From contig JBBAPZ010000001.1 in assembly GCA_040400605.1 (NCBI GenBank), positions 147,390 to 211,389 of the forward strand: a stretch of DNA of 64,000 bases, given 5' to 3'. Below, in pieces: positions 5,153-50,685 of this stretch (within the stretch, counting starts at the first letter, position 1; every line of letters begins with the position of its first letter). The notes below the pieces were generated by a model that was not told the origin of the DNA, searched no databases, and was given only the letters and a program-made list of their open reading frames with translations. Source of the DNA: Candidatus Sericytochromatia bacterium. GTDB lineage: Bacteria > Cyanobacteriota > Sericytochromatia > S15B-MN24 > JAQBPE01. A program made the translations under genes and the position numbers.

Positions 5153-5223
5153 AGCCGGTGATGGGAATCGAACCCACGCCCCAAGCTTGGGAAGCTCGTT
5201 TGCTACCATTACAACACACCGGC
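5153..5223 (-). tRNA. tRNA-Gly (CCC)
   Basis: Reverse complement GCCGGTGTGTTGTAATGGTAGC...CGAGC-TTCCCAA-GCTTG...GGTTCGATTCCCATCACCGGCT; U discriminator. Confidence 0.95.
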
Positions 5224-24208: not shown

Positions 24209-24441
24209 GTTTTTTTAACCTGAATTTTCTGTTTACTTAATATTTTATCGCGCTATGAGTATAACATTGTTGAGATGGGGAGGCGATTGCTTGCCTAAAC
24301 TGATCCATTGTTTGCAACGCAGTACGGCCACTGGTTTAGTCGGCCTCGCATGCAAACGGTCACCAAACTGGCATCACCACAGTATTTGACACCGTCCGGC
24401 TTCACGACTCTGTCAAGCGGGCACTCAGGGCGCGATCGCTT

Positions 24442-24969: not shown

Positions 24970-26054
24970 GGTTGTTCTCCTTGGTTAACGAGCTGTAGCA
25001 GCCGATCCGCCACGCGTGTTTTGCTCGGTTCGCGCAGGGCAAAACGCCTGTTCCCCAGTGGGATGACAATGCCTGTTTGGGGGAGGGTGTCAACCAGTTC
25101 CGGCACGTTGAGATGCTGCGGCGTCGATTCCTGGTTGCTTTGAACCCAGAGCCACAGGGGACCGGTCAGATGACTGGCTTCGATGTCCGCGTAAGTCAAT
25201 TGGATCATCACGGTGTCATTCCCCACAAGCTGGGCACCCATGGTTCGGCTCAAATCAGGTGCTTCAGCGCCTGCAGGTGTCAATGCGTACAACCAGGACG
25301 TGCTCGGGGCGGCGAGCACCCACCGGAAAGCGTTTTCATCATTGGGACTCAAGAGGCGCGCGGTTTGGGTCGCCATCGATTGCTGTCTCAATGAAGCGCC
25401 CCACCCAAAGAGGAGCACACCAAGGATGGCGAGCGCGCCTGAGAGACCGAACACCCAAGCCAGAGGCTCCGGGCGACTGAAGCGGTGGGGCGGCTTGATT
25501 GAATCGTTCAAGCCGGTTGCGGGGTCGAAGCGTGCCTCACGTGCGTCGGGGGCATCGGGACCCAGTTGGCCTGGGCGTTCCCAATAATAGATGCCGGCTA
25601 ACTGGCTGCGGGGATCCACCACCATGGCCAGTTGAAATGGCAAGTTAAAATGCTGTTGATGGGTTTCTAAATCCGTTTCGGAGAAATAAACCCCGCTTCC
25701 TGAGTGAGTATGAACCCATCCCACGCAAGTCAGACCGTTCGGCAATTCTCCGGCTGGAATCGGAAAGTCGTGTTGATTCCGGGTCAACGCCTCAGCTTTG
25801 AAGGTAAACTCGCCCCTGTTCGAACGGGTATTTTCTGCCGGAACAAAATCCTTGACGATGATCCGAAACAAACCCTCCTCATTCGTGCGAACCGTGCCAA
25901 TCAAAAAAGCGCCCAATTCCGCTTCCAAGCTTTTGCGCGCCCAAGACCACAAGCGCGTAAGCAGTGGACGCGCTATCTGCAAGGTGATGGGACCATCGTT
26001 TTGCCATTGCCACAAACGATTCAAGGTGGTCGCTCCCTCCCAGTCACCATTCAC
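24966..26054 (-). CDS. JAB/MPN+ (Mov34) metalloprotease with TM helix and C-terminal domain
   Basis: ELGAFLIG (catalytic E), VGWVHTHSGSGVYFSETD (HxH-x7-SxxD), AMVVDP; TM LAWVFGLSGALAILGVLLFGWGA. Confidence 0.85.
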   Translation of the reverse strand: MNGDWEGATTLNRLWQWQNDGPITLQIARPLLTRLWSWARKSLEAELGAFLIGTVRTNEEGLFRIIVKDFVPAENTRSNRGEFTFKAEALTRNQHDFPIPAGELPNGLTCVGWVHTHSGSGVYFSETDLETHQQHFNLPFQLAMVVDPRSQLAGIYYWERPGQLGPDAPDAREARFDPATGLNDSIKPPHRFSRPEPLAWVFGLSGALAILGVLLFGWGASLRQQSMATQTARLLSPNDENAFRWVLAAPSTSWLYALTPAGAEAPDLSRTMGAQLVGNDTVMIQLTYADIEASHLTGPLWLWVQSNQESTPQHLNVPELVDTLPQTGIVIPLGNRRFALREPSKTRVADRLLQLVNQGEQP

Positions 26055-31104: not shown

Positions 31105-31178
31105 GCCTCGGTAGTTCAGTTGGATAGAACGCGTCCGTCCTAAGGATGATGTCGGGGGTTCGAGTCCCTCCCGGGGCG
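31105..31178 (+). tRNA. tRNA-Arg (CCT)
   Basis: GCCTCGG/CCGGGGC acceptor stem, D-loop GGA (A20), anticodon arm CGTCC-GTCCTAA-GGATG, GGTTCGAGTCC T-arm. Confidence 0.93.
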
Positions 31179-31334
31179 CTGGTACATAACAGGTCGGTCC
31201 CAGCAAATGCTGGCAACCGGCCCGTTATGGAAGCCATTGGTCATCATTACTGTCCACAATTGCCTCACGACTCGGTCAGTGTTGTGTGGCCCGATCTAAC
31301 GACTGGACTGTTCACATCAACAAGACCGGTTGTG

Positions 31335-33356: not shown

Positions 33357-34472
33357 TCAACCGCCTGGGATCACTTCCCGTTCGTTTGTCTGCGCTGGGT
33401 TTTTCTTGAGTTTTTCATAATGACCGCTGGTTGACCAACGGGACAGTTTCAGTCTGTTGACATACTGTATGAAGCGAACCAGTCCGGCGTCGATCTGCAA
33501 CATCGTTTGCGTTTGAAACCGTATGTTGTCATAAATCATGCCGTCTTCATCCCTTAACCACAAAAATCCCAAAACGGTCAGTACCAGGCGTACATACGAT
33601 GCCATACGGCCGAACAACGATTCCGGCTTGCGTGCAATGTAAATCGGCTGTGTGCGGGCCTGCCCGTTGGCCAAGGGTGTGTAGGCAAAAATCATGCGGG
33701 TGGGTTCAGCCTGCCACCGGCCGAACCAGCGGACATCTTCCAAGGTTCGCAGCATACCGATTGAGGCATCAACATAGCGCATGCTGTAAGCGTAACGCGT
33801 ACCCAGCAAGCCACGGATCGTTCGTTGCACCAAGGTTTTATCGGGAATGGCACCTTCCATGCGAAACTCGATAATGCGGCCATCCGCTGCTTCCTCGGTT
33901 TTCAGGGTCATCTCAATCGGAATATTGTGAACCGTGCGTAAATGTTGCGCATCCAAGCCGTTGATCATGTTGATGTTATGATGACAGGGTCGGGTGACCG
34001 CCCTGCCACGAATCGCATACACCGCTGACCCTTGCAGTTCAGGGTATTCCGGCACATCGCCTGCTGCTTGTCGCTCAGGCCAGATCCAGATAAACCCGTA
34101 GCGTTCGCGTACATCATAGGCCTGCAACCGTGCACGCTCCGGAATGGCTTCGCCGCAGGGGATATCCGTGCAGACGCCGTCTCCGTCATAGCGCCAGTGA
34201 TGAAAAAAACAGCGCAACTGATTGCCATCAACGCGACCAATGCCCAGATCTGTTCCCATATGGGAACAAAACGCATCCATCGCGCGTAACCGCCCGTCCT
34301 CACCACGAAAAACAACCACACGCTGATTGCAGAGCTCGTACGCCTTGACTTTCAGGGGTGCCACATCCTCTGTGGGGCCAAGCAAATACCACGCGAGTGG
34401 GACGACATCCCAGTTATTGAATACGGGGTGCCCCACATGCGGTTGAGTGGCCCCGTTTTTATCTCGATTCAT
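33357..34472 (-). CDS. Rieske non-heme iron oxygenase alpha subunit
   Basis: CSH...CFFH Rieske motif; NGLDAQHLRTVH mononuclear Fe site. Confidence 0.9.
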   Translation of the reverse strand: MNRDKNGATQPHVGHPVFNNWDVVPLAWYLLGPTEDVAPLKVKAYELCNQRVVVFRGEDGRLRAMDAFCSHMGTDLGIGRVDGNQLRCFFHHWRYDGDGVCTDIPCGEAIPERARLQAYDVRERYGFIWIWPERQAAGDVPEYPELQGSAVYAIRGRAVTRPCHHNINMINGLDAQHLRTVHNIPIEMTLKTEEAADGRIIEFRMEGAIPDKTLVQRTIRGLLGTRYAYSMRYVDASIGMLRTLEDVRWFGRWQAEPTRMIFAYTPLANGQARTQPIYIARKPESLFGRMASYVRLVLTVLGFLWLRDEDGMIYDNIRFQTQTMLQIDAGLVRFIQYVNRLKLSRWSTSGHYEKLKKNPAQTNEREVIPGG

Positions 34473-34676
34473 GATACTTCCGCTCTGCGCGCACGATCAC
34501 CCTTTGCAATCCAATTTTACCCCTCATCGCAGTGCTTTGACAAAACGCCGTCAGTAGTGAAAACCAGACATGGCAATGTGAACGACTGTCGCTTTGATGT
34601 TGCCGATTCAATTGCGGTTGTTGACCACGCTGACAGCGCATTGGCACGCCGTGGTGACAGGGTGTTGGGCGGGGTG

Positions 34677-36236
34677 TCATTTTGCGCCATCGTCGGTGCG
34701 CAGGTCGTCCAGCAGTGTGTGATCAGCGAGTCGGACAAACAGCAGTGTCGGTTTGATGTCACCCCATTTCATGCCTTGCCTGGTTTGCCAGGCGGCCAGA
34801 ATCGATGCTGCCTGGGGGTGAATGAGTGGTTCAATCGGCCCCAATTGGCCCAACTCTCTGGCCAGACGATAATGGTGGCTGTTCAGCAATTGGGCGTCAA
34901 TATGGGCAGCCAGTGCGACGGTGTCTTGGCTGCAATGGTCCATCACGAGGCAGTAGCGATCGCCCCCGATGCGGCACGGCACAAAACTCGCAACCGATGC
35001 GTCGTCAGGCAACAGCTTCGACACCTCGGCACGGATCAATGTTTCGGACAGTTTTTCGCCCACGAGATCGGATACCAGTCGCCCACGCCCCAGAAAAGCC
35101 AAGGTTGGGGTTTGCGCAATCCGTCCCACCACTTGCACGACATCCCCCAACCGATACCGGTACAAACCACCCATCTGAGACACAATCACCTGGTACGATT
35201 CACCCATTTTCAGCTCGTGCAGTCCGAGCCAATGACCATCGTCCGTTTCAAACTCAAAATAGACATCATCAAGCAGGGGCACACCGCCTGTGACACCAGT
35301 CAAGGGAATGGTGAGAGGGGCTTCGGTGGCCAAGAGCCCTTTGCCCTGAAAGCGCACGTCCGGCAGGCAGTCTTGCAAGCGTTCCGCCACCGCTTGCGCG
35401 TGACCATCCCTCCAGCAGGAAACCAAACGCAGTGAGGGCCAGATGCGGCGCCAGTCTATCGTCGTTTCTGCGAGGGCTTGGCGAGTGTCTGGGTGCAGTG
35501 CCGGCCCATTGGCTGTCAGCAAATCCTGACGATTGGCTGAAATCCAGTCAAACAGGATCAACAGGTAGGTGGGATTCCAGATCGAAATCGATTCGAGATC
35601 TCGCGCTTTAAGCAGCGCAACGCTGACCGCTTGCTTGAATGATTCGGCATCACGTGCGGCGGCGGCGTCCGGCACCTGAACAAAAAATGGATCCAGCCAT
35701 GGTTTGAGCCAACGCCCCAAGTAATCCGCATCGGATTCGAAACCTACTTGCGAACCTGCGGCGATCGAATGGCTTGCGAGGTGAAAGCGCGGCGAAATGG
35801 AAAAATAAAAACGCCCTTGGCCAAGCCCGGGGTCGTGGCGTAGCAAATCACCCACCCACAAAACAAACATTCTCCTGAAGGACTGCAACAAGGTGGGAGG
35901 GTAGGGAATGAGCTTGGATTGGCCCGCGCTCCCGGACGTTGGTTCGAATTGGCGTACGATACCTGGCAGCAACACATCAGGTTCGCCGCGGGTGACGCGT
36001 TCAACCCATGGTGTCAGGTCATCGAAGGACACAATGGGCAAACGGCGTAAAAAGTCAGGCGGTGTTTCAATGCCGTAATGCCGTCCATACGACGACTGTC
36101 GAGCCAGGCGCGTCAGGCGTTTCAATACGGTTGCCTGTGCATGGGCTGGGTGGCGCAGGCTGTGCGCAAAGCGTGCCAGAAACGGAGCACTGTAAGCGAG
36201 AAACAATCCCCGCAGCAACCAACGGAGGGGCTTCAC
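34677..36236 (-). CDS. GH3 family acyl-adenylate-forming (acyl acid amido synthetase-like) protein
   Basis: FEPTSGSAGQSKLIPY, GKGLLATEAP, GLYRYRLGDVV motifs. Confidence 0.85.
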   Translation of the reverse strand: MKPLRWLLRGLFLAYSAPFLARFAHSLRHPAHAQATVLKRLTRLARQSSYGRHYGIETPPDFLRRLPIVSFDDLTPWVERVTRGEPDVLLPGIVRQFEPTSGSAGQSKLIPYPPTLLQSFRRMFVLWVGDLLRHDPGLGQGRFYFSISPRFHLASHSIAAGSQVGFESDADYLGRWLKPWLDPFFVQVPDAAAARDAESFKQAVSVALLKARDLESISIWNPTYLLILFDWISANRQDLLTANGPALHPDTRQALAETTIDWRRIWPSLRLVSCWRDGHAQAVAERLQDCLPDVRFQGKGLLATEAPLTIPLTGVTGGVPLLDDVYFEFETDDGHWLGLHELKMGESYQVIVSQMGGLYRYRLGDVVQVVGRIAQTPTLAFLGRGRLVSDLVGEKLSETLIRAEVSKLLPDDASVASFVPCRIGGDRYCLVMDHCSQDTVALAAHIDAQLLNSHHYRLARELGQLGPIEPLIHPQAASILAAWQTRQGMKWGDIKPTLLFVRLADHTLLDDLRTDDGAK

Positions 36237-36907
36237 TGTGCCACGTCAGTAGTGGGTTCGTGAGGGGCTGACTCCGGGGTTCGTGCCTCGATGACGATGT
36301 CGGGCAAGACATCAACGGTGGCGCGTACCAACGCGTTTGCCCTGACGACGACACCGGGGCCATAACGGCTTGAGGCGCCAAGAAATGCGCGATCCTCAAA
36401 GCACACACGCTTGATGTAAATTTTCATCCCGCCATATTGTCGGCTCGGTGAAATGTAGTGGGAAGTCACTTTGACGCCGTAGCCAAAAATGACGTTGTCA
36501 CCCACTTCCAGCATGCCGCGATCCGCAATTTCAAACCCCGGTGCAAAATACACGTTGCGTCCGATGCGCGCACCCCAAGCCCGCAACCACAACTGAAAAA
36601 GACCCGGTACGAGGCGCAGGACATTTTCGAGAAAAGGGACGGCAATCAACCCTTGTTGAATCATGTGGGTACCGAACCAAGGGGAGTAGCCTTGGGCGAT
36701 CGAAAAGGTTCCCTCTTCCAGGCGCCACACCAGTTGATGAAGGTGATAGGCGAGCAGTGGCAGCAAATAGGCCGCCGTTGGAATCAGGGCCAAGGTTGGC
36801 CAGCAGGGGTGAAAGACGAACCATGTAATCGCCCCGAGCAGTGCCCCAAGGTGCACAGACGGGAACAGGGTCATCAGACGGGCAAGCAATGTCATTGATA
36901 AGGCCAC
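36233..36907 (-). CDS. Membrane-associated left-handed beta-helix acyltransferase
   Basis: N-terminal TM segments; LRAWGARIGRNV, LEVGDNVIFG hexapeptide repeats. Confidence 0.75.
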   Translation of the reverse strand: MALSMTLLARLMTLFPSVHLGALLGAITWFVFHPCWPTLALIPTAAYLLPLLAYHLHQLVWRLEEGTFSIAQGYSPWFGTHMIQQGLIAVPFLENVLRLVPGLFQLWLRAWGARIGRNVYFAPGFEIADRGMLEVGDNVIFGYGVKVTSHYISPSRQYGGMKIYIKRVCFEDRAFLGASSRYGPGVVVRANALVRATVDVLPDIVIEARTPESAPHEPTTDVAQ

Positions 36908-37647
36908 ACCAATTGTCTAAAAACTGTACCTGGCACTGGAACGCCAACGGTGTCCGGTGGGTGTTCGAATCTTCGATAGGTATCGTGCATGCGATCCCAC
37001 CAACTGAAATTGGCACCGTAATTGTAATTGATTCCGGCACCCGCATGATGCCACGCGTGATCCGTTGGGGTAATCAATACGCGTCCCACCCACGCATCAA
37101 TCCGCGGCGACAGATAACACCCCGAATGCCGCCACAAATCCATTGCCGATGACAAAGCCGCCGCCCACAACACCGCCGCTTCGCAGCCCGTTACAAACAC
37201 CCAGGCACCATTCAGCCACAGGTAAACAATCAAAAAACTGGCCCAAACGGGATTGCGGGAGGTCGCCCACACATCCAACACCCGCGACCCGTGATGAACG
37301 CGATGAATGGGCCACAAGGAACGGCGATGCAGCAAGCGGTGGTTCCAGTAATAGGCATAGTCAACACCCACGAATACGCCCAAAAAAGCCACCCATCCCG
37401 GCACAGACCATATTCCTTCCAGATTCGGGCAAAGCCAGCGCAAGCCCTGAACCACCAGCCATGCCTGCAACAAAGGAATCGTCACGCCTTGGATCCACAA
37501 GCCCACAGCATCCATCGACCATTCCGTTGGTCGACGGCTTCGTAACCAGCCAGCAACGCCGAGGCGCCGCCAGACCACAATGGTGAAAAGCAGGAAACAG
37601 ACACCGGTCAATGCGGCGCTACCCAATTGATGAACCACGCGTTCCAT
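36892..37647 (-). CDS. Sterol desaturase / fatty acid hydroxylase family membrane diiron enzyme
   Basis: His boxes YWNHRLLH, IHRVHH, DHAWHH; NYGANFSWWDR. Confidence 0.9.
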   Translation of the reverse strand: MERVVHQLGSAALTGVCFLLFTIVVWRRLGVAGWLRSRRPTEWSMDAVGLWIQGVTIPLLQAWLVVQGLRWLCPNLEGIWSVPGWVAFLGVFVGVDYAYYWNHRLLHRRSLWPIHRVHHGSRVLDVWATSRNPVWASFLIVYLWLNGAWVFVTGCEAAVLWAAALSSAMDLWRHSGCYLSPRIDAWVGRVLITPTDHAWHHAGAGINYNYGANFSWWDRMHDTYRRFEHPPDTVGVPVPGTVFRQLVWPYQ

Positions 37648-37659
37648 CTTGCAGCCTTC

Positions 37660-38694
37660 TTAGATGTACATCGTCACGCGGGCCGATTTGGGCGGTAGGC
37701 AGGCCGGGTCCCGCCCCTCGTGAATCTCTTTTTGAATGCTTTCCACGTAGACATGAATCAAGTCAGAGGGCGTATTGGCGAAATCTTCACCATAGCGACG
37801 AATCACGTCCCCTTGCTGTTTCAGTGCAACAATGTCTTGGTCGATGATGGCCTGTGAGTAGCGCCGGATCGCCCAGGTTATCCAACGCGTCCAGATGCCA
37901 TAATTGTAGGTGACATCGGTATAGACCAAAGTTTTGCCAGCCTCAAGCGGTATGGCCTGCGACGTGATGATGAGGTGTCGGGTGGGACCCATGTGATACT
38001 CAACGCAACTGACATTGGGCGCAAAAAACTCATCGGTGTGTCCGATGCTGTGCCCACCGGGGTTCAGAAATCGGCTGAACCAGCCCAAATTCGTGTTTTC
38101 GTTAAAATACTCCGCCCGCACGCTCGCACCTTGGCGCGCAATGGACACATCAATGGGCTGACGGCGTTCCCGACGAAAAATACCAGGATGGACATAAACC
38201 GTGTGAGGAATATCAATAAAATTCTCAATGCAATTGGTGACGGAATTTTCAAACAGGTTAATCACCCGCACGGTACGATAACCCGCTTCACCATAGCGCC
38301 GCATCCGAAACGGCTCTACCGTCAACGTCGGCGTCGCATTCAAACGAACATAAACAAAGCCATCCAATTCGCGGGTCTCATAGACAACCGCGCACCGTTT
38401 GGCTACCTGCTTGAAATTGGTGCCTTCGGACGGTACCGCGACCACCGCACCACCTGTGCCATAGGTCCAGCCATGATACCCGCAGACGAGTTTGCCATCC
38501 ACAACGCGCCCCTTCGACAGCGGCGCTGCGCGGTGTTTGCACCGGTCTTGCAACACAACCGCCTCCCCGGACTCGTTTCTGAAAACCACGAGATTTTCAC
38601 CGAGAACCTGCCGCGCCAACACATCCTGTCGGCCCAACGCACGCGACTCGGAAACGATGTACCAAAAATCCCTTTCACTTACCCCCACAAACAA
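37660..38694 (-). CDS. Rieske non-heme iron oxygenase alpha subunit
   Basis: CKH...CGYHG Rieske motif; ENFIDIPHTVYVH and QD mononuclear Fe site. Confidence 0.9.
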   Translation of the reverse strand: MFVGVSERDFWYIVSESRALGRQDVLARQVLGENLVVFRNESGEAVVLQDRCKHRAAPLSKGRVVDGKLVCGYHGWTYGTGGAVVAVPSEGTNFKQVAKRCAVVYETRELDGFVYVRLNATPTLTVEPFRMRRYGEAGYRTVRVINLFENSVTNCIENFIDIPHTVYVHPGIFRRERRQPIDVSIARQGASVRAEYFNENTNLGWFSRFLNPGGHSIGHTDEFFAPNVSCVEYHMGPTRHLIITSQAIPLEAGKTLVYTDVTYNYGIWTRWITWAIRRYSQAIIDQDIVALKQQGDVIRRYGEDFANTPSDLIHVYVESIQKEIHEGRDPACLPPKSARVTMYI

Positions 38695-38697
38695 CCC

Positions 38698-38991
38698 TCA
38701 CTGCGGCAACGGCTTGAGGGTGAGGGGACAACAGACATCAATCTGACAGGCAAGGCGCGCGCGGGGATTGTCCGTCAACACATCCAGCAGTTCCTGCTCA
38801 TCGCCACCCGGGGGTTCCAACTGTTCGAGGCCCGCCTGCACTTCAACAAGGCATGTGCCACAGATACCTGTGCGACAACCAAATAAAATTGGTGAACGCG
38901 TGGCATCAAGTTCCACAGAGAGCGATCGCCCCGCCGATACGGTTGACGGCTCGTACCCCGGTTCCTCATAGTGAATCTGAAATTGCGTCAC
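38698..38991 (-). CDS. [2Fe-2S] ferredoxin
   Basis: GCRTGICGTC...RLACQ. Confidence 0.9.
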   Translation of the reverse strand: MTQFQIHYEEPGYEPSTVSAGRSLSVELDATRSPILFGCRTGICGTCLVEVQAGLEQLEPPGGDEQELLDVLTDNPRARLACQIDVCCPLTLKPLPQ

Positions 38992-40229
38992 GTCACCGCC
39001 TCCCGCATCGTGGGACGAACCCCAGGAATTCGATCCGGCTTCACATTTCGCGCAAAGTCAGCCAACGCTCGCCGATTTTGCGTCAGATAACCTTGCATCG
39101 TTGTCTGACGCATCAGGCTCAAATTCTTGTTCTCCGCATTGACGTAACCCAAGGGATCCAAATAGCGCTGATACGAATCGATCGCCGTCTGCATGGTTGC
39201 AAACGAAGCCGTGTTGCCATTGTTTTCTTCCGCGAAGCAAAGCCGCATCATCTCCAACGCTTCACCATGCGCCATCCCGAAAATACCACTGCGCAACACT
39301 TTGTAGATTGCCTGAAATGTTGCTGGCTCGTGCCAGAACAAACCATTGACCACAGCGGAAAAATGGCGGTGATCCTTTTGGCACCCCATAATCGCACGGT
39401 TGCCCACCATCGCCTCAAACGCCGACGGCTTGGGCAGGGCGTCAATCACCTCGCAGCCAACGATACAGGAACTGTTAAAATGAAAACTCTCATCCATAAA
39501 ATGATAATGGCTGATGGCAGAGGGTACTGCGGCTGTTTCTCGTTCCGGCAGACGCATGTAATACTGAGACAATTTGTGTTGCACCATCTTGCCATTCAAG
39601 GTGCGTAAGCCACGCACCGTAAAATACTGCGACGCGATGAACGCATTGCTTGACGTGAGCAGGTTGTACGCCTGCAACTGAAAGGTGCGCCACATATCCT
39701 TCAATTTGTTGGTGTCCGGAAAAAGCATGGTCTGCGCGTAGGGGCTGCGCATGGACCATGAAAACACCCGCTCACCGAAAAGCGCTTCCTCGACTTGATC
39801 GCTCACAGTTTTGAACGCATTGATATGCGCGCGTTCCTGGGCCGATTCGAGGTCCAACATATCACAGACCCCGCGAAAATCTTCCAAGGCATAAAGTCCG
39901 GCTGCGCAGGTCTGATTCAAGAAAATTGTGGCGACTTCCGCTGAGATGATCTGCGAATAATACGCCACCCAATACAACTGATTCAAACGCAAACGCTGCG
40001 TCTCATCCGCCTGATCCCACAATGGCGTACCATGTAGCAGCGAATGCTCCGGCGAGTTCCAATACTGATGCTGGCAGTCCTCATATCGAAACTTTTTCGC
40101 CGCTTGGTCAAGCAATGCCGTATGATCCTGCTCCTTGTTGCGTGAATGATTCAGATGAATCTTCTTGCAGAGTTTTTCATCCTGAACGATTGCCGAAACC
40201 GGACGGGGCAGCTTCTCACTCATACACAC
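38988..40229 (-). CDS. CylC/AurF-like dimetal-carboxylate enzyme (candidate halogenase or oxygenase); start likely ATG 40223
   Basis: LNQLYWVAYYSQIISAE, ESAQERAHINAF and HYHFMDESFH give two ExxH motifs in a ferritin-like fold. Confidence 0.75.
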   Translation of the reverse strand: MCMSEKLPRPVSAIVQDEKLCKKIHLNHSRNKEQDHTALLDQAAKKFRYEDCQHQYWNSPEHSLLHGTPLWDQADETQRLRLNQLYWVAYYSQIISAEVATIFLNQTCAAGLYALEDFRGVCDMLDLESAQERAHINAFKTVSDQVEEALFGERVFSWSMRSPYAQTMLFPDTNKLKDMWRTFQLQAYNLLTSSNAFIASQYFTVRGLRTLNGKMVQHKLSQYYMRLPERETAAVPSAISHYHFMDESFHFNSSCIVGCEVIDALPKPSAFEAMVGNRAIMGCQKDHRHFSAVVNGLFWHEPATFQAIYKVLRSGIFGMAHGEALEMMRLCFAEENNGNTASFATMQTAIDSYQRYLDPLGYVNAENKNLSLMRQTTMQGYLTQNRRALADFARNVKPDRIPGVRPTMREAVT

Positions 40230-41179
40230 CTCGTTGCTTCCAAAGGGTCAAACGCACGCAATTCTTCCAGAGCCACAATCACATCGTGTGCGCCCTCCTG
40301 CGCCATCAACTGGCGCAAGGTATTCAAACGCGAGGCGCTGTGTGCCATTGTATCCAATTCCTCCAGGGTCTTCACCCGTTCGGCACGCGACAAGCCACCC
40401 ACTGCCTCATCAATGGCCGACAGTACCGCTTGCGGCCCTACCTGCACCATGCCCAAAAATTGCCTGAGCGTATCAATCAACACCTGACGCTCACTGCGAC
40501 CCAACTTGGCCACCAACGACTTTTGCACATTGAGTACGACCCCACCACCATGATGACGCGCTTCGTCCTTTAAAATGGCCTGTAACACCTGCCGAAACCA
40601 CGGTTCTTGGCAGCCCCGCATCATGTCGCTGTAGCGCTGCAAGCCCCAGCCTTCCAGCACCACTTGAATCAAAAAGACGAGTGTTGCCGGGTTGTGAGCG
40701 GCGATCGATTCATTCAGGATACGGTGAAACGCATTGGGCTTGACTTGGGCGATCGCCTGACCCAACGCCTCTTTCACCCAGGCATAATGGGTGGCCTCAT
40801 CAGCCGCGAACAAGGCATATAGCATGCGTTCCTCATCGGAATCAGCCAGCATGCACATGCGAGACGCATACACCATGCCGGCATCCTCAATGTAAAAAGC
40901 TTCCTCAAGCAAACCCCGATTACACCGCGAAACAATTTGCTGCTGCACATCACGCCGTGCCGAACGGTAGACGCTTGTGCGTTCCAGATTAAAAAATTGC
41001 CCATCCCAAAAATTATCAGGCACACCCTTAAAAGACTCGAAAGTACTCCCCGCCTTGTGCAAAGCGTGACGCAAAATCGACTGGGTGCGATCGCACACGG
41101 GCATGTCATCAACGACCATCGGAAACACTCCCTGTATCCAACGCACCAACCAGGGGTTGTATTCCGGACTCCCGTTCAA
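40220..41179 (-). CDS. Ferritin-like diiron protein (start probably later, about 41119 or 41104)
   Basis: EAFYIE, DEATH, VLEGWG, DEARH match the E/ExxH/E/ExxH ligand pattern. Confidence 0.8.
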   Translation of the reverse strand: MNGSPEYNPWLVRWIQGVFPMVVDDMPVCDRTQSILRHALHKAGSTFESFKGVPDNFWDGQFFNLERTSVYRSARRDVQQQIVSRCNRGLLEEAFYIEDAGMVYASRMCMLADSDEERMLYALFAADEATHYAWVKEALGQAIAQVKPNAFHRILNESIAAHNPATLVFLIQVVLEGWGLQRYSDMMRGCQEPWFRQVLQAILKDEARHHGGGVVLNVQKSLVAKLGRSERQVLIDTLRQFLGMVQVGPQAVLSAIDEAVGGLSRAERVKTLEELDTMAHSASRLNTLRQLMAQEGAHDVIVALEELRAFDPLEATRCV

Positions 41180-41960
41180 TGGCTACACTGACGTCACGCA
41201 CAACCGGTCGCGCCTTGAGGCGATAAAAAGGCGCCAGGGTCACCTTTTTGACGCGCTTCCACCCATAGGCAAACGGCAAACCGAAAGTCATTTCCGCCAA
41301 ACATACCAACTCGGCACCGTCTCGCCAGTACGGGTTTTTTTGCTCAAAAAAACGAATGCGCGGAAAACGCACCATTTCATCTGGCGTCGCCTCGGCGACG
41401 CCACTTTTCAGTTGTCCTTTCGACACCGCATAACGAATTAAACCGGATTCCGGATCATAATCCGCGCCAAACAAGCCCTGCGCAAATCGATGAATCAAAA
41501 CTTGCACGGTCAGCGGCGTCGCACATTCATGCCGTGGGTAATGCGTTGGGAAATTGTTGGCCATCAGCAAATAGGTCTTGTATCCTTTGCTGATTAAAAA
41601 CCAGTACAACGGCTCAAACGGTCGCTTCAGCTTCGCAAACCACAAATACCGCAAAAATGCCACACCCAAAACCTTTTGCCCCCAAAATGCCGCTTCAACC
41701 ACGGTGTCACCACTAAAAATGGCCCGCACCGTTCGACCCGATTCGTCTGTCAGCACCATCTGCCGCAAGGTCGAGAAACCCCTCAACACGTTTGACCCGC
41801 GTTCCAGCAACAAAATAACCGCATCTTTATTGGCAAGATCGATTTCAAACTGTTCCTGTGACACCGCCGTGTAGTACGTTTCGAAAATCGCATACATGCG
41901 CTGACGCACCTTGTGGTCCAGTTCACGGACGGCAACCGTTCGCGAGATCAATGCTGACAC
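41109..41960 (-). CDS. Putative GNAT-fold acyltransferase
   Basis: beta-hairpin GFST..., FSGDTVVEAAFWGQKVL (motif-A-like), YWFLISKGYKTY; overlaps neighbours on both sides. Confidence 0.55.
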   Translation of the reverse strand: MSALISRTVAVRELDHKVRQRMYAIFETYYTAVSQEQFEIDLANKDAVILLLERGSNVLRGFSTLRQMVLTDESGRTVRAIFSGDTVVEAAFWGQKVLGVAFLRYLWFAKLKRPFEPLYWFLISKGYKTYLLMANNFPTHYPRHECATPLTVQVLIHRFAQGLFGADYDPESGLIRYAVSKGQLKSGVAEATPDEMVRFPRIRFFEQKNPYWRDGAELVCLAEMTFGLPFAYGWKRVKKVTLAPFYRLKARPVVRDVSVAIERESGIQPLVGALDTGSVSDGR

Positions 41961-43069
41961 GCGTCCCCCTTGCGTTTTGCCGCCAAGACCGCAGAATCGT
42001 TTTGGTCACCATCCCAACTGCCCCACGGTACCGCCCGTTGCTGCTCGACATGCCGAATAAACTCAACGATTGGGCGATCCGCGCCGATCGGTGTCTGAAA
42101 CTTCCAATGAATCGTCTGGAAAACCTGCGTATCGCCCTTGGCAAAATAATTGCCCACAATCTCCGTCACTTTTAAGATGACCCGGTTGAGCAACCACCCC
42201 ATCACCCCTTTGCGCTTGGCCGTCACCAAAATGGTCTGGCCCTCCGATGTCCCTTTAGCCGTCGGACGCAAGGCAAAAATGATGTGAAAATGCAAAAAAT
42301 CAGGCCCAACCGTCACCGAACCGGTAGAACCATTCCAATAAACCATCCGATACGTCAAAGGCCCCGCATACCAACGCGCCAGCAAACGGTTGAAGGGGTT
42401 GTTTGTTGGAACGGGACGATCATTGTCAAACATTTGACAGTTTTGCGCCGGGGACGATACCGCAAAATGCAAACCATCCGCCAACGATGATGCCAATGGG
42501 TGTACCGAGTGAAAGTGCTGCTCATCAATCGCATTTACCATCACAATGTTTGGATGGCACCCCTTCTCAAACCGATTGCCAAGCAACCAATCAATTTCCT
42601 GACCGGCCAATTCCGGGATGTAAGGCACTGGGCGCAAAGCAACCGCTCCATTCCAGATCCAGACCATGCCATACTGCTCCGCCACGGGCCACACCTTGAC
42701 ACCCACGCGCGCAGGATGCGATTGGCACGGAATGTCGACCACCTGCCCTTGCGCACCCATTTTCCAGTGGTGAAAGAAACAGCGAATCCCCTCACCATCC
42801 ACCCGCCCTTCAGCCAAATGGGCACCCATGTGGGGGCAATACGCATCCATCGCGCGGGCGACGCCTTGCTCATCGCGGAATACGACAATGTTCCGACCAA
42901 GAAAATTCAGGGGTTGGATCTGCCCGCGCCGCAATTCGCCGGCCGCACACGCCCAATACCAACCCTCCACAACCGAGTCGAAACTGCCAAAGACTGTGCC
43001 AGCACAATCGCGAGCAGGCTCAGTACAAGGTGTGATCGATAAGTCCGGGTTCACCCATGTCTCTTGCAT
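41948..43069 (-). CDS. Rieske non-heme iron oxygenase alpha subunit
   Basis: CPH...CFFH Rieske motif; NAIDEQHFHSVH; GGGAG RBS; first gene of the operon. Confidence 0.9.
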   Translation of the reverse strand: MQETWVNPDLSITPCTEPARDCAGTVFGSFDSVVEGWYWACAAGELRRGQIQPLNFLGRNIVVFRDEQGVARAMDAYCPHMGAHLAEGRVDGEGIRCFFHHWKMGAQGQVVDIPCQSHPARVGVKVWPVAEQYGMVWIWNGAVALRPVPYIPELAGQEIDWLLGNRFEKGCHPNIVMVNAIDEQHFHSVHPLASSLADGLHFAVSSPAQNCQMFDNDRPVPTNNPFNRLLARWYAGPLTYRMVYWNGSTGSVTVGPDFLHFHIIFALRPTAKGTSEGQTILVTAKRKGVMGWLLNRVILKVTEIVGNYFAKGDTQVFQTIHWKFQTPIGADRPIVEFIRHVEQQRAVPWGSWDGDQNDSAVLAAKRKGDACQH

Positions 43070-43481: not shown

Positions 43482-44342
43482 GTGTCGCAGCGTATGGATG
43501 GGAAGACGGTTGTAATCACGGGCGCATCAAGTGGACTCGGATTGGCATCCGTCCGCGCTTTGGCAGCCCAGGGCGCGCGGATCATCGCTGCGGTTCGGGA
43601 TGTCGACAAACTGCAGGCCATTCTTGGCCCAACGGACCAGTTAACGCAGATTGCCCTGTGCGATTTGGCGGATATGGCCAGTATCCAGCGTTTTGCCGAG
43701 CGCTTGTTGGCATCGGAGAAGACGATTGATGTATTAATCAACAACGCAGGTGTCATGAACTTTCGCCACATCCAAACGCGCGATGGCTTCGAATCCAATT
43801 TTGGCGTCAATCATTTGGGTCATTTTTTACTGACGGCCCGACTTTTTCCACTTTTGGCAGCGGCGCCCGCAGCACGGGTCGTCACGGTCAGCAGTATCGC
43901 CCACCGTCGTGGAACCCTGGACTTTGCCAATGCCGATCCGGCCAAGGACTTTGGTGCGCCCCACTCCTATGCCAACAGCAAATTGGCAAACCTGGTTTTC
44001 AGTCTCGAGTTGTCCCGCCGCCTGAAGCAGACCCATCCCCACATGGCGGCTGTCGCAGCCCATCCCGGTTGGACCCACACCCCGTTGTTTCGTGATATGA
44101 GCGTGACTGCCTGGTTGAGCCGCTTTTTGGCCATGGATGCGGAATCGGGCGCTGCACCGCAAATCGCGGCAGCCTTGGACACATCCATCCCCAATGGTGC
44201 TTACTGGGGCCCCAACGGTTTTCGCGAAATTTGGGGCAAACCGGGCCCGGCGGCACCTTCTATGCAGGCGCTTGACGAGGGGCTCGCTCAAATCCTTTGG
44301 CAACGCTCGGAAACCTGGACCCAAACGCCGTTTAAGCTGTGA
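43482..44342 (+). CDS. Short-chain dehydrogenase/reductase
   Basis: TGASSGLG, NNAG, YANSK, AHPGWT. Confidence 0.9.
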   Translation: MSQRMDGKTVVITGASSGLGLASVRALAAQGARIIAAVRDVDKLQAILGPTDQLTQIALCDLADMASIQRFAERLLASEKTIDVLINNAGVMNFRHIQTRDGFESNFGVNHLGHFLLTARLFPLLAAAPAARVVTVSSIAHRRGTLDFANADPAKDFGAPHSYANSKLANLVFSLELSRRLKQTHPHMAAVAAHPGWTHTPLFRDMSVTAWLSRFLAMDAESGAAPQIAAALDTSIPNGAYWGPNGFREIWGKPGPAAPSMQALDEGLAQILWQRSETWTQTPFKL

Positions 44343-44359: not shown

Positions 44360-46645
44360 TCAAGACGGGAACTTTTGGTCGGTGCGATCGCCTGGCCACC
44401 AGTTCCAACGACCCGCGAGCAGCAACAAAGCAGGAGCCAGTATCGCGCGAATCAAAGTCGCATCAAGCAAAATGGCCACGGCCAACCCGAGGCCGAACAA
44501 TTGCGTGAATACAATTCGCGCAAAGGCAAACGAACCGAACACCAAGATCATCATCAAGGCCGCCGCCGCAATGATGCTGCCAGACTGGCCCATTCCTGCC
44601 AAAATCGCCTGCTCTTCATTCATCTGACTTCGCGCTTCCCGTACCCGACTGAGTAAAAAGATTTCGTAATCCATACTCAGGCCAAACGTCACACAAAACA
44701 CCAATACCGGAATGAACAAAGGCCAGGCGTTAATCGGTTCGGCAAGGCCAATCCAACTGGACAACCAACCATCCTGAAAAACCAGCACGAGCGCCCCAAG
44801 CGATGCTGAAACAGCCAACAGATTCAGTAAAATTGCTTTAAACGGGATCAGTATTGAACGGAACAGGATGCCAAGCAAGACAAACGACCCCACAAACACG
44901 GCGGTGAGGCACCAAGGCGCCCGCTGTTCCAATGCGAGTCTATAATCGAGGTTGAACGCGGCATTGCCGCTGATCGCAACCGCCAACTCTCCCGCATACC
45001 GCCGATACTCCGCAACGATGCCCTCCGCCTCTTTCAGCGTCACGGCATCTTGTGGCCACACCAAAAACAAGGCTTTTCGGTGGTCCCGACTCAGGGTATA
45101 GGTCGCGATCGCGGGATAACGCTGCAAGGCGCGCTCAGCATTCGCGTACAACAGGCGATAAGCCATCGCCTTTGTGCCAGGCCGCAAGTCCACCGGCGAC
45201 AAAACAGCCTTGATGCGCGGATCCTCATGCAAGCGCCGCGACAGTTCCAACATCTGCTTAACCCCTGCTGCACCCAATACCCCACCGGTGTCACGGGTGC
45301 TTACAACCATCGGAATCGGTTGACTGACACTCGCACCATTCAGACGCTTCAACACTGATGCAGCCTTGACCGCCTCCAGTTCTGCCGGGAAATGACGGGT
45401 TTCCGGCACCCCAAACACCGCTCTGGAGGCATTCCAGGCGATCGCCAACAACAGTGCGAGTACACCGAGGCTCAACCAAAACCGATGGCGTTGAACAAAA
45501 GCGCCCCAACGCAACCATTTCTGAGCCCCCCACCCCGAATCGGTCAGGCGTGACCAACCTGCCGGCCAATCGAGCCACCGGTCACCCAGCAGCAACAGAG
45601 CAGGCAACAAGGTGCATACAGCGGCAAGCGCGGCGCCCACGACCAGAACGCCCGCAACCCCCACCGAGTAAGCATCCGTGGTTCCTAAAATCAGCAAAGC
45701 TGCCATGCAAATCACAACCAGGCAGCCCGACGCCAGCACCGTGCGAACAGCCGTTTTAAACACCATCCTGACAGCGTCTGCTGCCGATGCTCCGCCACGC
45801 CGCACCTCACGAAATCGTGAAACAACCAGCAGCGAGTAATCAATTCCCAACGCCAAACCGATCATCGACACGGTGGTCTGGGCAAATCCATTCATGCCAA
45901 CCCAGTCTGTTCCCACAACCAACAAGGCCATGGCAAGCAAACACGCAGCCGCGCCCAACAAAACCGGCATGGCGGCAGCCAGTGGCGTACCAAATACCAG
46001 CATCAGCAAGACCAAGGCAGGAAGCAGTACACGCCGTTCCGCCGTGGCACTGTCACCCATCGTTCCCCCAACAATGTCGGCTTCCAAAACCCCCGCGCCC
46101 GTCACATAAACCTGTGCCGCGGAATCGAAAGCCTTCAGCGTGGGTAATTCCTGTTGGATTATCTCGCGAACAGGCGGCAGGAGACTGCGTTCGCGATCCC
46201 GCAAGGTCCGACCGATAAACCACACTTCGGCGTGGGCATCACGTAAGCGCGGCAACGACAAACCAAGCGGAGGCTTGGAATCGACAACACCCAAGACGTC
46301 CGGCACCGACGCAAGTCGCTGTCTCAGGCGCGCACGCCAGGCATCCAGTGCCGGATCGCCTGGCGTGCGCGCTGGCGTCTCAATCACGACAACCAGCGGC
46401 GCGATGTAGGGATTGACGAAATTGTCCGTCAACTCATTCATCACATCGACCGCTTGACTGCCCGGAATATCCAGGTGACTGCGCGCCAGTCGATCACCCA
46501 AATGCAAACTGAGCGGCAGCGACATCAGCATCACGACCAACCAACAACCAACAATCGCCCACGGACGTTTGATAATCAACTCAACGATGGCGCCACTCAC
46601 GCGTAAATACCACCTTGCAAACAAACTTGTGTCACGATGCGCCAA
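44360..46645 (-). CDS. MMPL family RND transporter
   Basis: GLALGIDYSLLVVSRFRE and FGLSMDYEIFLLSRVRE motifs; two TM bundles. Confidence 0.9.
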   Translation of the reverse strand: MAHRDTSLFARWYLRVSGAIVELIIKRPWAIVGCWLVVMLMSLPLSLHLGDRLARSHLDIPGSQAVDVMNELTDNFVNPYIAPLVVVIETPARTPGDPALDAWRARLRQRLASVPDVLGVVDSKPPLGLSLPRLRDAHAEVWFIGRTLRDRERSLLPPVREIIQQELPTLKAFDSAAQVYVTGAGVLEADIVGGTMGDSATAERRVLLPALVLLMLVFGTPLAAAMPVLLGAAACLLAMALLVVGTDWVGMNGFAQTTVSMIGLALGIDYSLLVVSRFREVRRGGASAADAVRMVFKTAVRTVLASGCLVVICMAALLILGTTDAYSVGVAGVLVVGAALAAVCTLLPALLLLGDRWLDWPAGWSRLTDSGWGAQKWLRWGAFVQRHRFWLSLGVLALLLAIAWNASRAVFGVPETRHFPAELEAVKAASVLKRLNGASVSQPIPMVVSTRDTGGVLGAAGVKQMLELSRRLHEDPRIKAVLSPVDLRPGTKAMAYRLLYANAERALQRYPAIATYTLSRDHRKALFLVWPQDAVTLKEAEGIVAEYRRYAGELAVAISGNAAFNLDYRLALEQRAPWCLTAVFVGSFVLLGILFRSILIPFKAILLNLLAVSASLGALVLVFQDGWLSSWIGLAEPINAWPLFIPVLVFCVTFGLSMDYEIFLLSRVREARSQMNEEQAILAGMGQSGSIIAAAALMMILVFGSFAFARIVFTQLFGLGLAVAILLDATLIRAILAPALLLLAGRWNWWPGDRTDQKFPS

Positions 46646-48541: not shown

Positions 48542-49011
48542 GTGATCGTCGTTGAATCACCGCTTGACGCGGCCGCACATGATGACAAAGGCGTTTTTTG
48601 GGAACTCCCATCTTGTTTTTGTGTGCTTGTTGTTTCAAACGGGTTTGAATTGCGCGCGACACAAGCGCATGCGTTGCTGCATCGCTGCCAGTCCTTTTTG
48701 CCTGTGTTTGGGAGCCGGCGATCGATTGTTTCCGGTAGGTGGCGCGCCCCAGCTGCTTGCAGAGGTCGCGGTGGGGACGCGGGTTACCCCGCGCCCCCCG
48801 CACAGATCCCAGCGGGCGCTGCTATCGCACTGGGCCCCTACCGCGGGTTTTGGCGTCAAACCTCGCTGTCGGCCATTGGTTGAGAATCTTTGGTGTCGGC
48901 AGAGTGCAAAACGAACCGTCATGCCGTGGGCGGCCACGCCGAACCTTGGTTACCAGTCCTCAAGCCTTGGGTGACCTGATTAAAACCTGCAGTCATTCAA
49001 GGATTGGTGCG

Positions 49012-49914
49012 CTAGGAGCCGATCCACTCAGACAATGTGAGCCTGCCGGATTGCAGATCCGTCGAGCCGAGTTTGATGGAGCCGCCCCGAGCTGTAACCC
49101 GGAGGGCCTTGTACCAATAGCGCCCATCGTTTCGCTGACAGGCCACATACCAAACGCCAGGCGGGAGGTCGAAGTTGGCCACGCCATTCTCGTCGGTGAC
49201 ACTTTGAACAAAGCCTACATGAGGCTGCCCACCCTGACGCACCACCGCCTGTTGCAATGCCTCGTTGCGTCTGCCAAGCCATGCAGCCAAACGCACCTGA
49301 TACTCAACATCGCCACTGCTGCCGAGCCCCTGGTTTTCATTGTAACCATCAATGATGCGATTCAGCGCCTCCGTGACGTGCGCACACCAGATCTGACGCC
49401 CATTCATTTTGGAGAAAATGGCGCCAATCCCCAAATCGTCAGGCCGATCACCATATTTTTTGAACACCTCGTCAAACGCGGGCATCAACGTGGCCAATAC
49501 CTCAGGCTCAGCGGCGTGAGCAATCCGAAAGCCCTCTCGAAATCGTTCCAGCTCAAACGAATGCACCAGACTGAAACTGCGCCAACTGGCAATCCGCGGC
49601 ACAGGTGTCAGATTGGTCTGTTTGCTGTCAGGTTCCGGCCTCGATGCACTCAAACTTGCCATCACCAGCGGAAAGAGGCGTTTGACATCATAAGAAAACG
49701 CCACAACATCCTCGCCCTCATCCAATGCCCCTTGGGCATCGCCGAAGCTGATGGCAACCGGCGCGGCGCACGCAGTCACGGACCAAAACAGGCACCCCAG
49801 CACAACCGCGCCCGGGACGACCAGTTTGACGCCAAGCCGCTTGACACATCGGATGACAGACATGCTGCGCAGTGTAACCCGGGATTTCATCTGCTGACTG
49901 TGACCAATGGCCAT
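49012..49914 (-). CDS. Hypothetical secreted protein with C-terminal carboxypeptidase-regulatory-like domain
   Basis: Signal-like hydrophobic segment; VTDENGVANFDLPPGVWYV motif. Confidence 0.6.
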   Translation of the reverse strand: MAIGHSQQMKSRVTLRSMSVIRCVKRLGVKLVVPGAVVLGCLFWSVTACAAPVAISFGDAQGALDEGEDVVAFSYDVKRLFPLVMASLSASRPEPDSKQTNLTPVPRIASWRSFSLVHSFELERFREGFRIAHAAEPEVLATLMPAFDEVFKKYGDRPDDLGIGAIFSKMNGRQIWCAHVTEALNRIIDGYNENQGLGSSGDVEYQVRLAAWLGRRNEALQQAVVRQGGQPHVGFVQSVTDENGVANFDLPPGVWYVACQRNDGRYWYKALRVTARGGSIKLGSTDLQSGRLTLSEWIGS

Positions 49915-49979
49915 CGCTCCCCTATGCGGATTCCATATTATGTTAAAATCCTTTTCAGGGCAATTTCGAAAGGGCGACC

Positions 49980-50213
49980 ATGCTGGTTGAAACGCGCGAT
50001 TTACTGACTCCTCATCACGCGGCGGCCTTGTTAAATAACACGCTTCGTGAATTCGTCAGCCTGGTCGATGCTGGGGTCTTGCAGCCCTTTGTGGAGATCG
50101 ACGGTTTGCGTTTTTATCACCGAAACGAAGTGTTGGCTCGTAAACGGTTTCAAGACACGTTAGCGGGACGGGCACCTCGCTGTACGGTACCCAAAACCCA
50201 AGAATTATTTTGA
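49980..50213 (+). CDS. Small excisionase/MerR-like HTH protein
   Basis: LLT...AA.LL.......LV..G.L.P.......RFY.R.EV pattern. Confidence 0.6.
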   Translation: MLVETRDLLTPHHAAALLNNTLREFVSLVDAGVLQPFVEIDGLRFYHRNEVLARKRFQDTLAGRAPRCTVPKTQELF

Positions 50214-50220: not shown

Positions 50221-50685
50221 ATGGAACACGGTGAATCGTGGGTACAATGCGTGGGACTGATTGTCACGCTGTTGCGGTTGCACGCGCTTGAACACAAGGG
50301 GGAGCCACTTTTGCCTCAGCCTTTTCCCAATTCGCCGTTTGATCATTTGGCGCAGTTTTGGATGCAACGGGCGCGCGAGGTAGGCGTGACAGAGCAGCAA
50401 GTGTTACAGCTGTTGGGTTTTAAGGGGGGAGTCGGGCCGCTTGAAACCTTGTTGTCCGGTCGACCCGCCAGCGAAACCTTGCCTGAAATTGCCCAAGGGA
50501 TTGTTGAAGGCACCGGAGAGGTAATCAAAGCAACGCGAGGGCAGGTTGAAGCGGCGTTGCCGGTCGTCATTCCAGAAGAGCATAAAACGATTGTCAAGAA
50601 GTTACACATGCTGGATGGTGAGGGATTGAGGCAATTGGATGTCTACCTCAATTTTTTGATCGCGCAGGGTATGGTGAAGCGCTGA
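50221..50685 (+). CDS. Hypothetical protein, possible regulator
   Basis: 154-aa ORF starting 7 nt after the HTH gene. Confidence 0.5.
   Translation: MEHGESWVQCVGLIVTLLRLHALEHKGEPLLPQPFPNSPFDHLAQFWMQRAREVGVTEQQVLQLLGFKGGVGPLETLLSGRPASETLPEIAQGIVEGTGEVIKATRGQVEAALPVVIPEEHKTIVKKLHMLDGEGLRQLDVYLNFLIAQGMVKR

Follow-up and report, generated by a model that had tools for sequence, protein, structure and literature searches.

Among the genomic contexts of CylC homologues surveyed by Eusebio et al. in 2021 (PMC8406957), the 'Rieske-containing' clusters were the most abundant (n = 36). According to the main text of that article, these clusters encode two to four Rieske proteins, a protein of the sterol desaturase family, one CylC homologue and acyltransferases, contain no carrier protein, have no known product, and were missed by both antiSMASH and CORASON. 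The authors reported no substrate-activating enzyme nearby, the term GH3 having no occurrence in the main text, and flagged the carrier-protein independence as valuable for biocatalysis. Here we describe an operon of ten genes at positions 33357–43069 of a stretch of 64,000 nucleotides (nt; hereafter the window) from a Candidatus Sericytochromatia bacterium (contig JBBAPZ010000001.1, positions 147,390 to 211,389). The operon is a copy of the published Rieske-containing CylC-homologue cluster in a new lineage, and we lean towards the view that this intact copy of a conserved, product-less cluster serves to build an amide-linked fatty-acyl lipid and then to tailor it oxidatively. A sequence-only reading of the window had mentioned such clusters as lacking an assigned product, had called the operon an orphan and had warned that scaffold-based finders of biosynthetic gene clusters could miss it. 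It was correct about these clusters, and the two programs did miss the type; the operon is indeed an orphan, but not a new discovery, since its type was already in print. In the literature that we found, no characterised product was assigned to such clusters, the supplement of the 2021 article (cluster maps, Table S4) lying outside the search.

The genes of the operon, numbered in transcription order, and its one spacer are listed below (aa, amino acids; scores are Pfam bit scores).

g01, 41948–43069, minus strand: Rieske non-heme iron oxygenase, 373 aa, alpha-only and KshA-like (Rieske 79.1 bits)
g02, 41109–41960, minus strand: GNAT-fold acyltransferase-like protein, 283 aa (from its predicted structure)
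g03, 40220–41179, minus strand: ferritin-like diiron protein, AurF/acyl-ACP-desaturase-like (Ferritin_2 30.3 bits)
g04, 38988–40229, minus strand: CylC-like diiron protein of the Rieske-cluster clade, 413 aa (from homologues, motifs and tree)
g05, 38698–38991, minus strand: plant-type [2Fe-2S] ferredoxin, 97 aa (Fer2 37.5 bits)
g06, 37660–38694, minus strand: Rieske oxygenase with a VanA_C/PaO-type catalytic domain, 344 aa (Rieske 77.4 bits, VanA_C 31.5 bits)
g07, 36892–37647, minus strand: membrane diiron enzyme of the FA_hydroxylase family, 251 aa (FA_hydroxylase 87.4 bits)
g08, 36233–36907, minus strand: left-handed beta-helix (LbH, hexapeptide) acyltransferase, 224 aa (Hexapep below cut-off)
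g09, 34677–36236, minus strand: GH3-family adenylating acyl-acid amido synthetase, 519 aa (GH3 100.6 bits, GH3_M 61.1 bits)
spacer, 34473–34676: 204 nt between the GH3 gene g09 and g10 (coordinates from the list of open reading frames)
g10, 33357–34472, minus strand: third Rieske oxygenase, 371 aa, KshA-like (Rieske 73.9 bits)

All ten open reading frames (ORFs) of the operon are co-oriented, and g01 to g09 are tightly packed, as in translational coupling: in transcription order, the first four junctions are overlaps (13, 71, 10 and 4 nt), the next two are short gaps (3 and 12 nt) and the last two are again overlaps (16 and 4 nt), the only larger gap being the 204-nt spacer before g10. The overlap of g02 and g03 shrinks from 71 to 11 nt if g03 starts at residue 21, as in its Atlas record; the true start of g03 is thus probably near 41119. 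The spacer holds a promoter-like match on the minus strand (34543–34514, 10 of 12 consensus positions; a pattern match only), and in the same-order relative G013 its place between the GH3 and Rieske genes is occupied by a gene for an amidohydrolase–Mpo1 fusion. At 34592–34602 of the spacer, contigs of two other metagenome runs lack 5 + 5 nt, which resembles strain variation confined to non-coding DNA. To assess ligand conservation, each operon protein was aligned with 44–73 homologues from related loci (45–74 rows), after removal of ORFs that a contig end truncates or whose length lies outside 0.75–1.3 times that of the query. All expected metal ligands were kept in at least 95% of the aligned rows, in every iron-enzyme family and in the ferredoxin, bearing out the earlier claim that the six O2-dependent iron enzymes have intact metal ligands. 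The earlier description of ten co-oriented genes with tight junctions and one 204-bp gap, at the coordinates stated, agreed with ours. It had also stated that polyketide synthases (PKS), nonribosomal peptide synthetases and acyl carrier proteins (ACP) were absent, and Pfam searches of the ten operon proteins and the scanned flanks matched no PP-binding, AMP-binding, KS or condensation domain. The operon is therefore confirmed as a real, intact and strongly conserved feature.

The composition of the operon closely follows that given for the clusters of the 2021 article: one CylC homologue, three Rieske proteins, a protein of the FA_hydroxylase/sterol desaturase family, an LbH and a GNAT-fold acyltransferase, and no carrier protein. 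Its gene order is shared with loci from Nostocales and Oscillatoriales. There are differences as well: g04 takes another place in the tree than the copies of oxygenic cyanobacteria, and an amidohydrolase/Mpo1-like pair is unlinked from the operon (both below). The host here is a non-photosynthetic relative of cyanobacteria, and the GH3 gene, which finds no mention in the main text of PMC8406957, is present both here and in 47 of the 80 related loci described below. As a regular member, GH3 would provide the cluster with a substrate-activating enzyme of its own.

The distribution of the cluster was surveyed with one genome per GTDB species; relatives of g04 were encoded in 403 of 461 candidate stretches, and gene families were counted in the best 80 of these 403 loci, within 10 kb on either side where the contig allowed. 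Family matches were found for g03 in 74 loci, g05 in 70, g01 in 69, g06 in 64, g02 in 60, g07 in 59, g10 and the LbH protein in 51 each, and GH3 in 47. All ten families occurred together in 25 of the 80 loci (21 of the 42 with full flanks), always in one orientation (25/25). Synteny is thus conserved in other genomes, and over several phyla. Chlorogloeopsis fritschii PCC 6912 and several Nostoc strains are among the carriers of related loci. About 19 of the 80 loci bore titles other than oxygenic cyanobacteria, namely Myxococcota, Bdellovibrionales, Gammaproteobacteria, Accumulibacter, Elusimicrobia, Planctomycetota and Candidatus Sericytochromatia. Within the phylum of the host, 28 of 251 sampled genomes carried an orthologue-level match to g04 (E ≤ 1e-137), while six had weak matches only (25–38% identity). 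The host assembly itself measures 3.7 Mb and is 94.5% complete, and its closest cluster-bearing relatives share 81% identity in g04.

A quick IQ-TREE analysis of 81 g04-related sequences, with SH-aLRT support only and long-branch warnings, placed g04 in a clade of nine rows (support 100) with sequences from Myxococcota, Bdellovibrionota and Gammaproteobacteria. In contrast, the 55 oxygenic-cyanobacterial rows formed one separate clade (support 100), and four relatives of the same class also stood apart from g04; the two closest rows (G013 and G023) had been lost to the length filter. Furthermore, the adenylosuccinate synthetase encoded in the window (52078–53397) is 56% identical to that of G013, compared with 81% for g04. 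Each from a single gene, the tree placement and this difference in identity suggest that the cassette has spread laterally. Metagenome runs of several studies, from freshwater, lake and subsurface sources, contained near-identical DNA.

For the putative role of g04, the CylC-type diiron halogenases provide the closest comparison. According to the NocO study (PMC12101540), these enzymes share nine conserved residues, seven of them within the motifs QExxH and HxxDExxH, and the metal site is proposed to be of a 3-His/3-Glu type in which one position stays open for chloride. In that proposal, the position is left open by the ninth residue, a Glu displaced from the metal site (E283 of the CylC model); it is the sole non-invariant one and is Gln in a small subset. 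The assay mixture for the CylC homologue NocO included ferredoxin, ferredoxin reductase and NADPH.

The ferritin-like fold, both motifs and the first-helix Glu of CylC and NocO all recur in g04, and a ferredoxin-dependent electron supply is plausible for it too. Its ligands E98, QE132xxH135 and H243xxDE247xxH250 belong to the conserved set described above; Q131-E132-x-x-H135, H243-x-x-D246-E247-x-x-H250 and E98 were invariant across five cluster-type and three CylC-type sequences. At position 217, however, Gln was invariant in 28 of 28 aligned cluster-type sequences, while the three CylC-type paralogues have Glu. This column probably corresponds to E283 of the CylC model. With the motifs and E98 kept and Gln instead of a carboxylate at the variable column, the site of g04 appears compatible with halide binding, which falls short of proof. 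Unlike the CylC-type proteins, g04 lacks an insert of about 60 residues and has no FAAL, ACP or PKS neighbours, so its substrate would not be ACP-tethered. Three of the weak matches within the phylum were fetched, and a FAAL-type and an ACP gene directly adjoined in all three, PKS genes in two, an arrangement that corresponds to the CylC/type I PKS architecture of the 2021 article. Their occurrence in FAAL–ACP contexts and their identity of only 28% each to g04 indicate that g04 belongs to a distinct, Rieske-cluster clade of the CylC family, and in the tree the cluster-type sequences including g04 were set apart from these three paralogues (SH-aLRT 100). The host genome holds a single match to g04. 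Database searches returned 1129 relatives at E ≤ 0.001, many of them cyanobacterial and named 'p-aminobenzoate N-oxygenase AurF', and PF28091 is the Pfam entry precomputed for g04 homologues; the match of g04 to Pfam AurF scored 22.6 bits, under the cut-off of 29.6. Sequence searches of solved structures gave no hit for g04 or for g07. With an AlphaFold2 (AF2) model of g04 (pLDDT 87), the best solved folds in Foldseek were CmlI (E 0.013) and AurF (E 0.04), both weak.

The three Rieske proteins all contain the CxH...CxxH motif of the cluster and the DxxHxxxxH motif of the mononuclear iron site. The best solved relative of g01 and g10 was KshA (4qdc; E 3.3e-23 and 6.8e-23, respectively), and those of g06 were SxtDIOX, SxtT and NdmA. 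Ligands were conserved in all three (for g01 C78xH80, C97xxH100, D182, H185 and H190, in at least 95% of 65 sequences; for g10 in at least 95% of 51). A grouping of these proteins with catabolic ring-hydroxylating dioxygenases would have spoken against the sequence-only reading. They did not group in this way: their best relatives were alpha-only enzymes (KshA, SxtT/SxtDIOX, NdmA, DdmC), and naphthalene- and biphenyl-type alpha chains matched the Rieske domain only, with E values of 1e-4 to 1e-8 compared with 1e-17 to 1e-23 for KshA and SxtT. The operon proteins are also shorter (344–373 aa versus about 450 aa for alpha chains of two-subunit enzymes), and the operon has no gene for a beta subunit. 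They thus resemble the alpha-only monooxygenases KshA, SxtT/GxtA, NdmA and DdmC in both motifs, in length (about 340–375 aa) and in the lack of a beta subunit; the matches, however, lie mainly in the first 150–190 residues, and the substrate-binding halves are unrelated by sequence. Since KshA, NdmA and DdmC are themselves catabolic, homology alone is compatible with catabolism.

Among the remaining iron proteins, g03 has Atlas neighbours that carry AurF or FA_desaturase_2, and its ligands E98, E128xxH131, E176 and E206xxH209 were kept in at least 95% of 69 sequences. The membrane enzyme g07 has conserved His boxes (H103xxxH107, H115xxHH, H197xxHH) and hydrophobic segments. The sequence-only reading had called it a desaturase; it belongs to the FA_hydroxylase family and may either desaturate or hydroxylate. 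The gene of the ferredoxin g05 shares 4 nt with the end of g04; the protein retains C39, C44, C47 and C82 and is the likely electron donor.

In g09, both GH3 domains score far above the Pfam cut-off of 23.6 bits, and the protein matches plant GH3 structures (E about 2e-16). The loop T100-S-G-S103, which we take to be nucleotide-binding, in keeping with what is reported for OlsH (PMC12493201), was kept in at least 95% of 45 sequences. The LbH gene was the neighbouring match of GH3 in 46 of the 47 loci with GH3. g08, the LbH protein of the operon, carries an N-terminal hydrophobic segment and has weak NCBIfam matches to WcaF and the C-terminal domain of Pls/PosA; among solved structures it resembles sugar O- or N-acetyltransferases (E 5e-4 at best). 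g02 had no match in Pfam or NCBIfam. Its AF2 model (pLDDT 89) retrieved NatD and AAC(2') in Foldseek (E about 5e-6), and VIA aligned it to NatD with Z 13.2 and an rmsd of 2.7 over 151 residues; of the 179 chains at Z ≥ 8, the 50 entries listed were nearly all acetyltransferases of the GNAT superfamily. A second, weaker GH3-family match lies elsewhere in the host genome (contig 8, about 87929–88663; 38% identity over the C-terminal half), and GH3 paralogues likewise occur in several relatives that lack the cluster.

The ornithine-lipid pathway of planctomycetes offers a precedent for such a ligase: OlsH is a bacterial GH3 enzyme that makes N-acyl-ornithine from a fatty acid, ornithine and ATP (PMC12493201). 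As in that pathway, the GH3 gene stands beside an acyltransferase gene here, and with g07 the operon also holds a relative of OlsE. The partner of GH3 differs, being the alpha/beta-hydrolase OlsI there and an LbH protein here, and the five further oxygenases of the operon have no counterpart in ornithine-lipid synthesis.

Clustering of all ORFs from the 80 loci revealed accessory genes around the core. An Amidohydro_3 protein was encoded in 24 loci and an Mpo1-like protein (DUF962, 2-hydroxy-fatty-acid dioxygenase family) in 21; in five loci the two were fused into one ORF of 705–732 aa (G013, Elusimicrobia, two from Accumulibacter and a metagenome-assembled genome (MAG) titled 'Heliobacteriaceae'). 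The host has both genes on contig 18 (locus L099), where the Amidohydro_3 gene (6819–8582, 587 aa) and the Mpo1-like/DUF962 gene (8579–9019, 146 aa) overlap by 4 nt. This pair is 72–73% identical to the fused in-cluster gene of G013, yet it is unlinked from the operon and lies between unrelated housekeeping genes. GMC oxidoreductases occurred in four loci, and an aldehyde dehydrogenase stood beside the cluster in one. The clusters of four Nostocales loci (L048, L051, L067 and L091) contain an inserted gene for a SulP/STAS anion transporter. A CMAS-like (cyclopropane/mycolic-acid-synthase-type) methyltransferase lies between the GH3 and short-chain dehydrogenase/reductase (SDR) genes of the Elusimicrobia locus L042. 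Two genes next to the operon in the window also came into consideration.

43482–44342, plus strand: SDR oxidoreductase, divergent, 286 aa (Pfam adh_short)
44360–46645, minus strand: MMPL-family RND transporter, 761 aa (Pfam MMPL 232.5 bits; MmpL3 and actII-type matches)

Orthologues of this SDR flank the cluster in G013 (51% identity) and in a Myxococcota MAG (44%). A different SDR, to which the window protein is only 27% identical and not orthologous, lies between g02 and g03 in 14 loci. The SDR of the window is thus a possible clade-specific accessory gene. MMPL/Patched proteins adjoin the cluster in three gammaproteobacterial loci and are 22% identical to the transporter of the window, which is possibly an exporter and whose cluster membership is uncertain.

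Taken together, these observations suggest the following route. In the manner of OlsH, GH3 would activate a free carboxylic (fatty) acid by adenylation and couple it to an amine. Further acylation would fall to the GNAT-fold protein and to the LbH enzyme that is coupled to GH3. Unactivated C–H bonds would then be hydroxylated or desaturated by the membrane enzyme g07, the three alpha-only Rieske proteins and the soluble diiron proteins g03 and g04, with g04 perhaps chlorinating the chain and the ferredoxin supplying electrons to the oxygenases, all on a substrate presumably not tethered to a carrier protein. The neighbouring SDR may adjust a hydroxyl or keto group, the MMPL protein may export the lipid, and the unlinked amidohydrolase/Mpo1-like pair may trim or recycle it. 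The amide-forming logic is consistent with the GH3 domains above cut-off, the OlsH precedent, the neighbourship of GH3 and LbH in 46 of 47 loci and the Amidohydro_3 genes in 24 of 80. A lipid as the product is hinted at by the FA_hydroxylase g07, the desaturase/AurF-like g03, the Mpo1-like genes, the MMPL neighbours and the CMAS-like methyltransferase. The boldest version of this proposal, to which we give little credence, is an undescribed polyhydroxylated or desaturated, chlorinated N-acyl amino lipid common to cyanobacteria and their non-photosynthetic relatives, to myxobacteria and Bdellovibrio-like predators, and to marine gammaproteobacteria. In that case g04, with its Gln variant, would be the first diiron halogenase to work without a carrier protein, its substrate being a lipid that is free or bound to the membrane.

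Whatever its product, a cassette of ten to thirteen genes with at least six O2-activating iron enzymes has been kept together across many phyla. Identification of the product would give functions to the CylC-clade diiron enzyme, the second ferritin-like enzyme, the GNAT-fold family without a Pfam entry and three Rieske subfamilies, and could yield a C–H functionalising enzyme, possibly a halogenase, that is independent of a carrier protein. The operon is a compact and intact copy from a non-photosynthetic relative of cyanobacteria, and the finding that the amidohydrolase/Mpo1-like module can be unlinked bears on the choice of genes to clone.

Several points weigh against the synthesis of an oxidised acyl-amide lipid. 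No copy of the cluster has a known product, so that all of its chemistry is inferred, and both the acyl-amide lipid and the halogenation are read from family membership and neighbours. The scores of the two ornithine-lipid models are low (OlsH model NF052613, 41.8 bits on g09 against an equivalog cut-off of 620; OlsE model, 46.3 bits on g07 against 475). The nearest solved relatives of g02 and g08 acetylate proteins, aminoglycosides or sugars, not lipids, and the substrates of the nearest solved Rieske relatives are steroids, saxitoxin-type alkaloids, methylxanthines and dicamba rather than acyl chains. To our knowledge, halogenation has been demonstrated for ACP-dependent CylC-type enzymes alone, which are about 28% identical to g04. 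A ferredoxin reductase gene is absent from the cluster. The adjacency of MMPL proteins is limited to few lineages and involves two types with the 22% identity given above. Transcription is weakly hinted at by one metatranscriptome library, in which nine short contigs map to segments of the MMPL gene, of a neighbouring PD40 gene and of g01, g04 and g10; identity on the operon and MMPL genes is 95–99%, the uncovered stretches are uninformative, and DNA carry-over is possible. Finally, the amidohydrolase/Mpo1-like pair, the aldehyde dehydrogenase and the GMC oxidoreductases fit breakdown as well as synthesis.

Breakdown or remodelling of a hydrophobic amide, such as an N-acyl lipid or a steroid-like compound, is indeed the alternative that we take most seriously, although we consider it unlikely. 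Here the Rieske and diiron enzymes would hydroxylate or demethylate the substrate, the amidohydrolase would split it and the Mpo1-like enzyme would shorten the resulting 2-hydroxy acid. Such a pathway would account for the catabolic monooxygenases and demethylases (KshA, NdmA, DdmC) among the closest solved Rieske relatives, for the amidohydrolase and Mpo1-like genes being fused in five loci and adjacent in the host genome, and for the aldehyde dehydrogenase beside one locus and the GMC oxidoreductases in four. It is difficult to reconcile, however, with an ATP-consuming GH3 ligase and two acyltransferases among the core members, with the lack of any recurrent uptake system or substrate-responsive regulator among the 80 loci, and with the frequency of the cluster in photoautotrophic cyanobacteria. 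Moreover, the 94.5%-complete genome gave no match to the squalene-hopene/oxidosqualene cyclase family, which makes an endogenous steroid or hopanoid substrate unlikely.

Somewhat less probable still is a small non-lipid product. In this case an amide derived from an amino acid or aryl amine would undergo N-oxygenation and hydroxylation of the AurF or PrnD kind, and the GNAT and LbH proteins would acetylate it. The naming of g04 homologues after AurF, the N-oxygenases CmlI and AurF as nearest solved folds of g04, the small-molecule acetyltransferases among the relatives of the GNAT and LbH proteins and the hydroxylation of an alkaloid by SxtT/SxtDIOX-type Rieske enzymes would all suit such a product. 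Yet the AurF match remains below its cut-off (22.6 versus 29.6 bits), the Foldseek E values reach only 0.01–0.1, and the CylC-family motifs QExxH and HxxDExxH are present in g04; lipids, for their part, are indicated by the CMAS-like methyltransferase, the MMPL transporters, the Mpo1-like genes and the membrane enzyme g07 of the FA_hydroxylase family. The notion of ten adjacent but unrelated genes, or of ORFs called in error, that form no functional unit deserves practically no weight and is already refuted: apart from the 204-nt gap, whose promoter-like match allows a separate transcript for g10, we found nothing in its favour, whereas the junctions of g01 to g09 overlap or span at most 12 nt, each of the ten ORFs has homologues over its full length, with the ligands conserved, and the gene set recurs in several phyla. 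We thus retain the synthesis and oxidative tailoring of an amide-linked fatty-acyl lipid as the favoured reading.

Two specific substrates were considered and rejected. A hopanoid or sterol, prompted by the matches to KshA and SdmA and by the MMPL neighbour, was discarded as the main reading: the 94.5%-complete genome has no SQHop_cyclase_C match, and the scores of the MMPL protein on HpnN and BstA were as low as 20.7 and 21.3 bits, respectively. For a carotenoid, one SQS_PSY gene was present elsewhere in the genome, with nothing linking it to the cluster.

Further features of the window lie outside the operon. Three plus-strand ORFs, at 48739–50007 (422 aa), 50221–50685 (154 aa) and 53517–55073 (518 aa), had no Pfam match, and the first and last of these had no NCBIfam match either. 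A tRNA-Arg(CCT) gene is located at 31105–31179, 2.2 kb past the last gene of the operon, and a tRNA-Glu(CTC)/tRNA-Gly(CCC) pair at 5064–5223. On the minus strand at 22964–26054, three genes stand in a row; they encode a subtilase of 414 aa (Peptidase_S8), a protein of 175 aa that matches no family, and a protein of 362 aa with a prokaryotic JAB/MPN domain, and together may represent a small proteolysis or deubiquitinase-like module.

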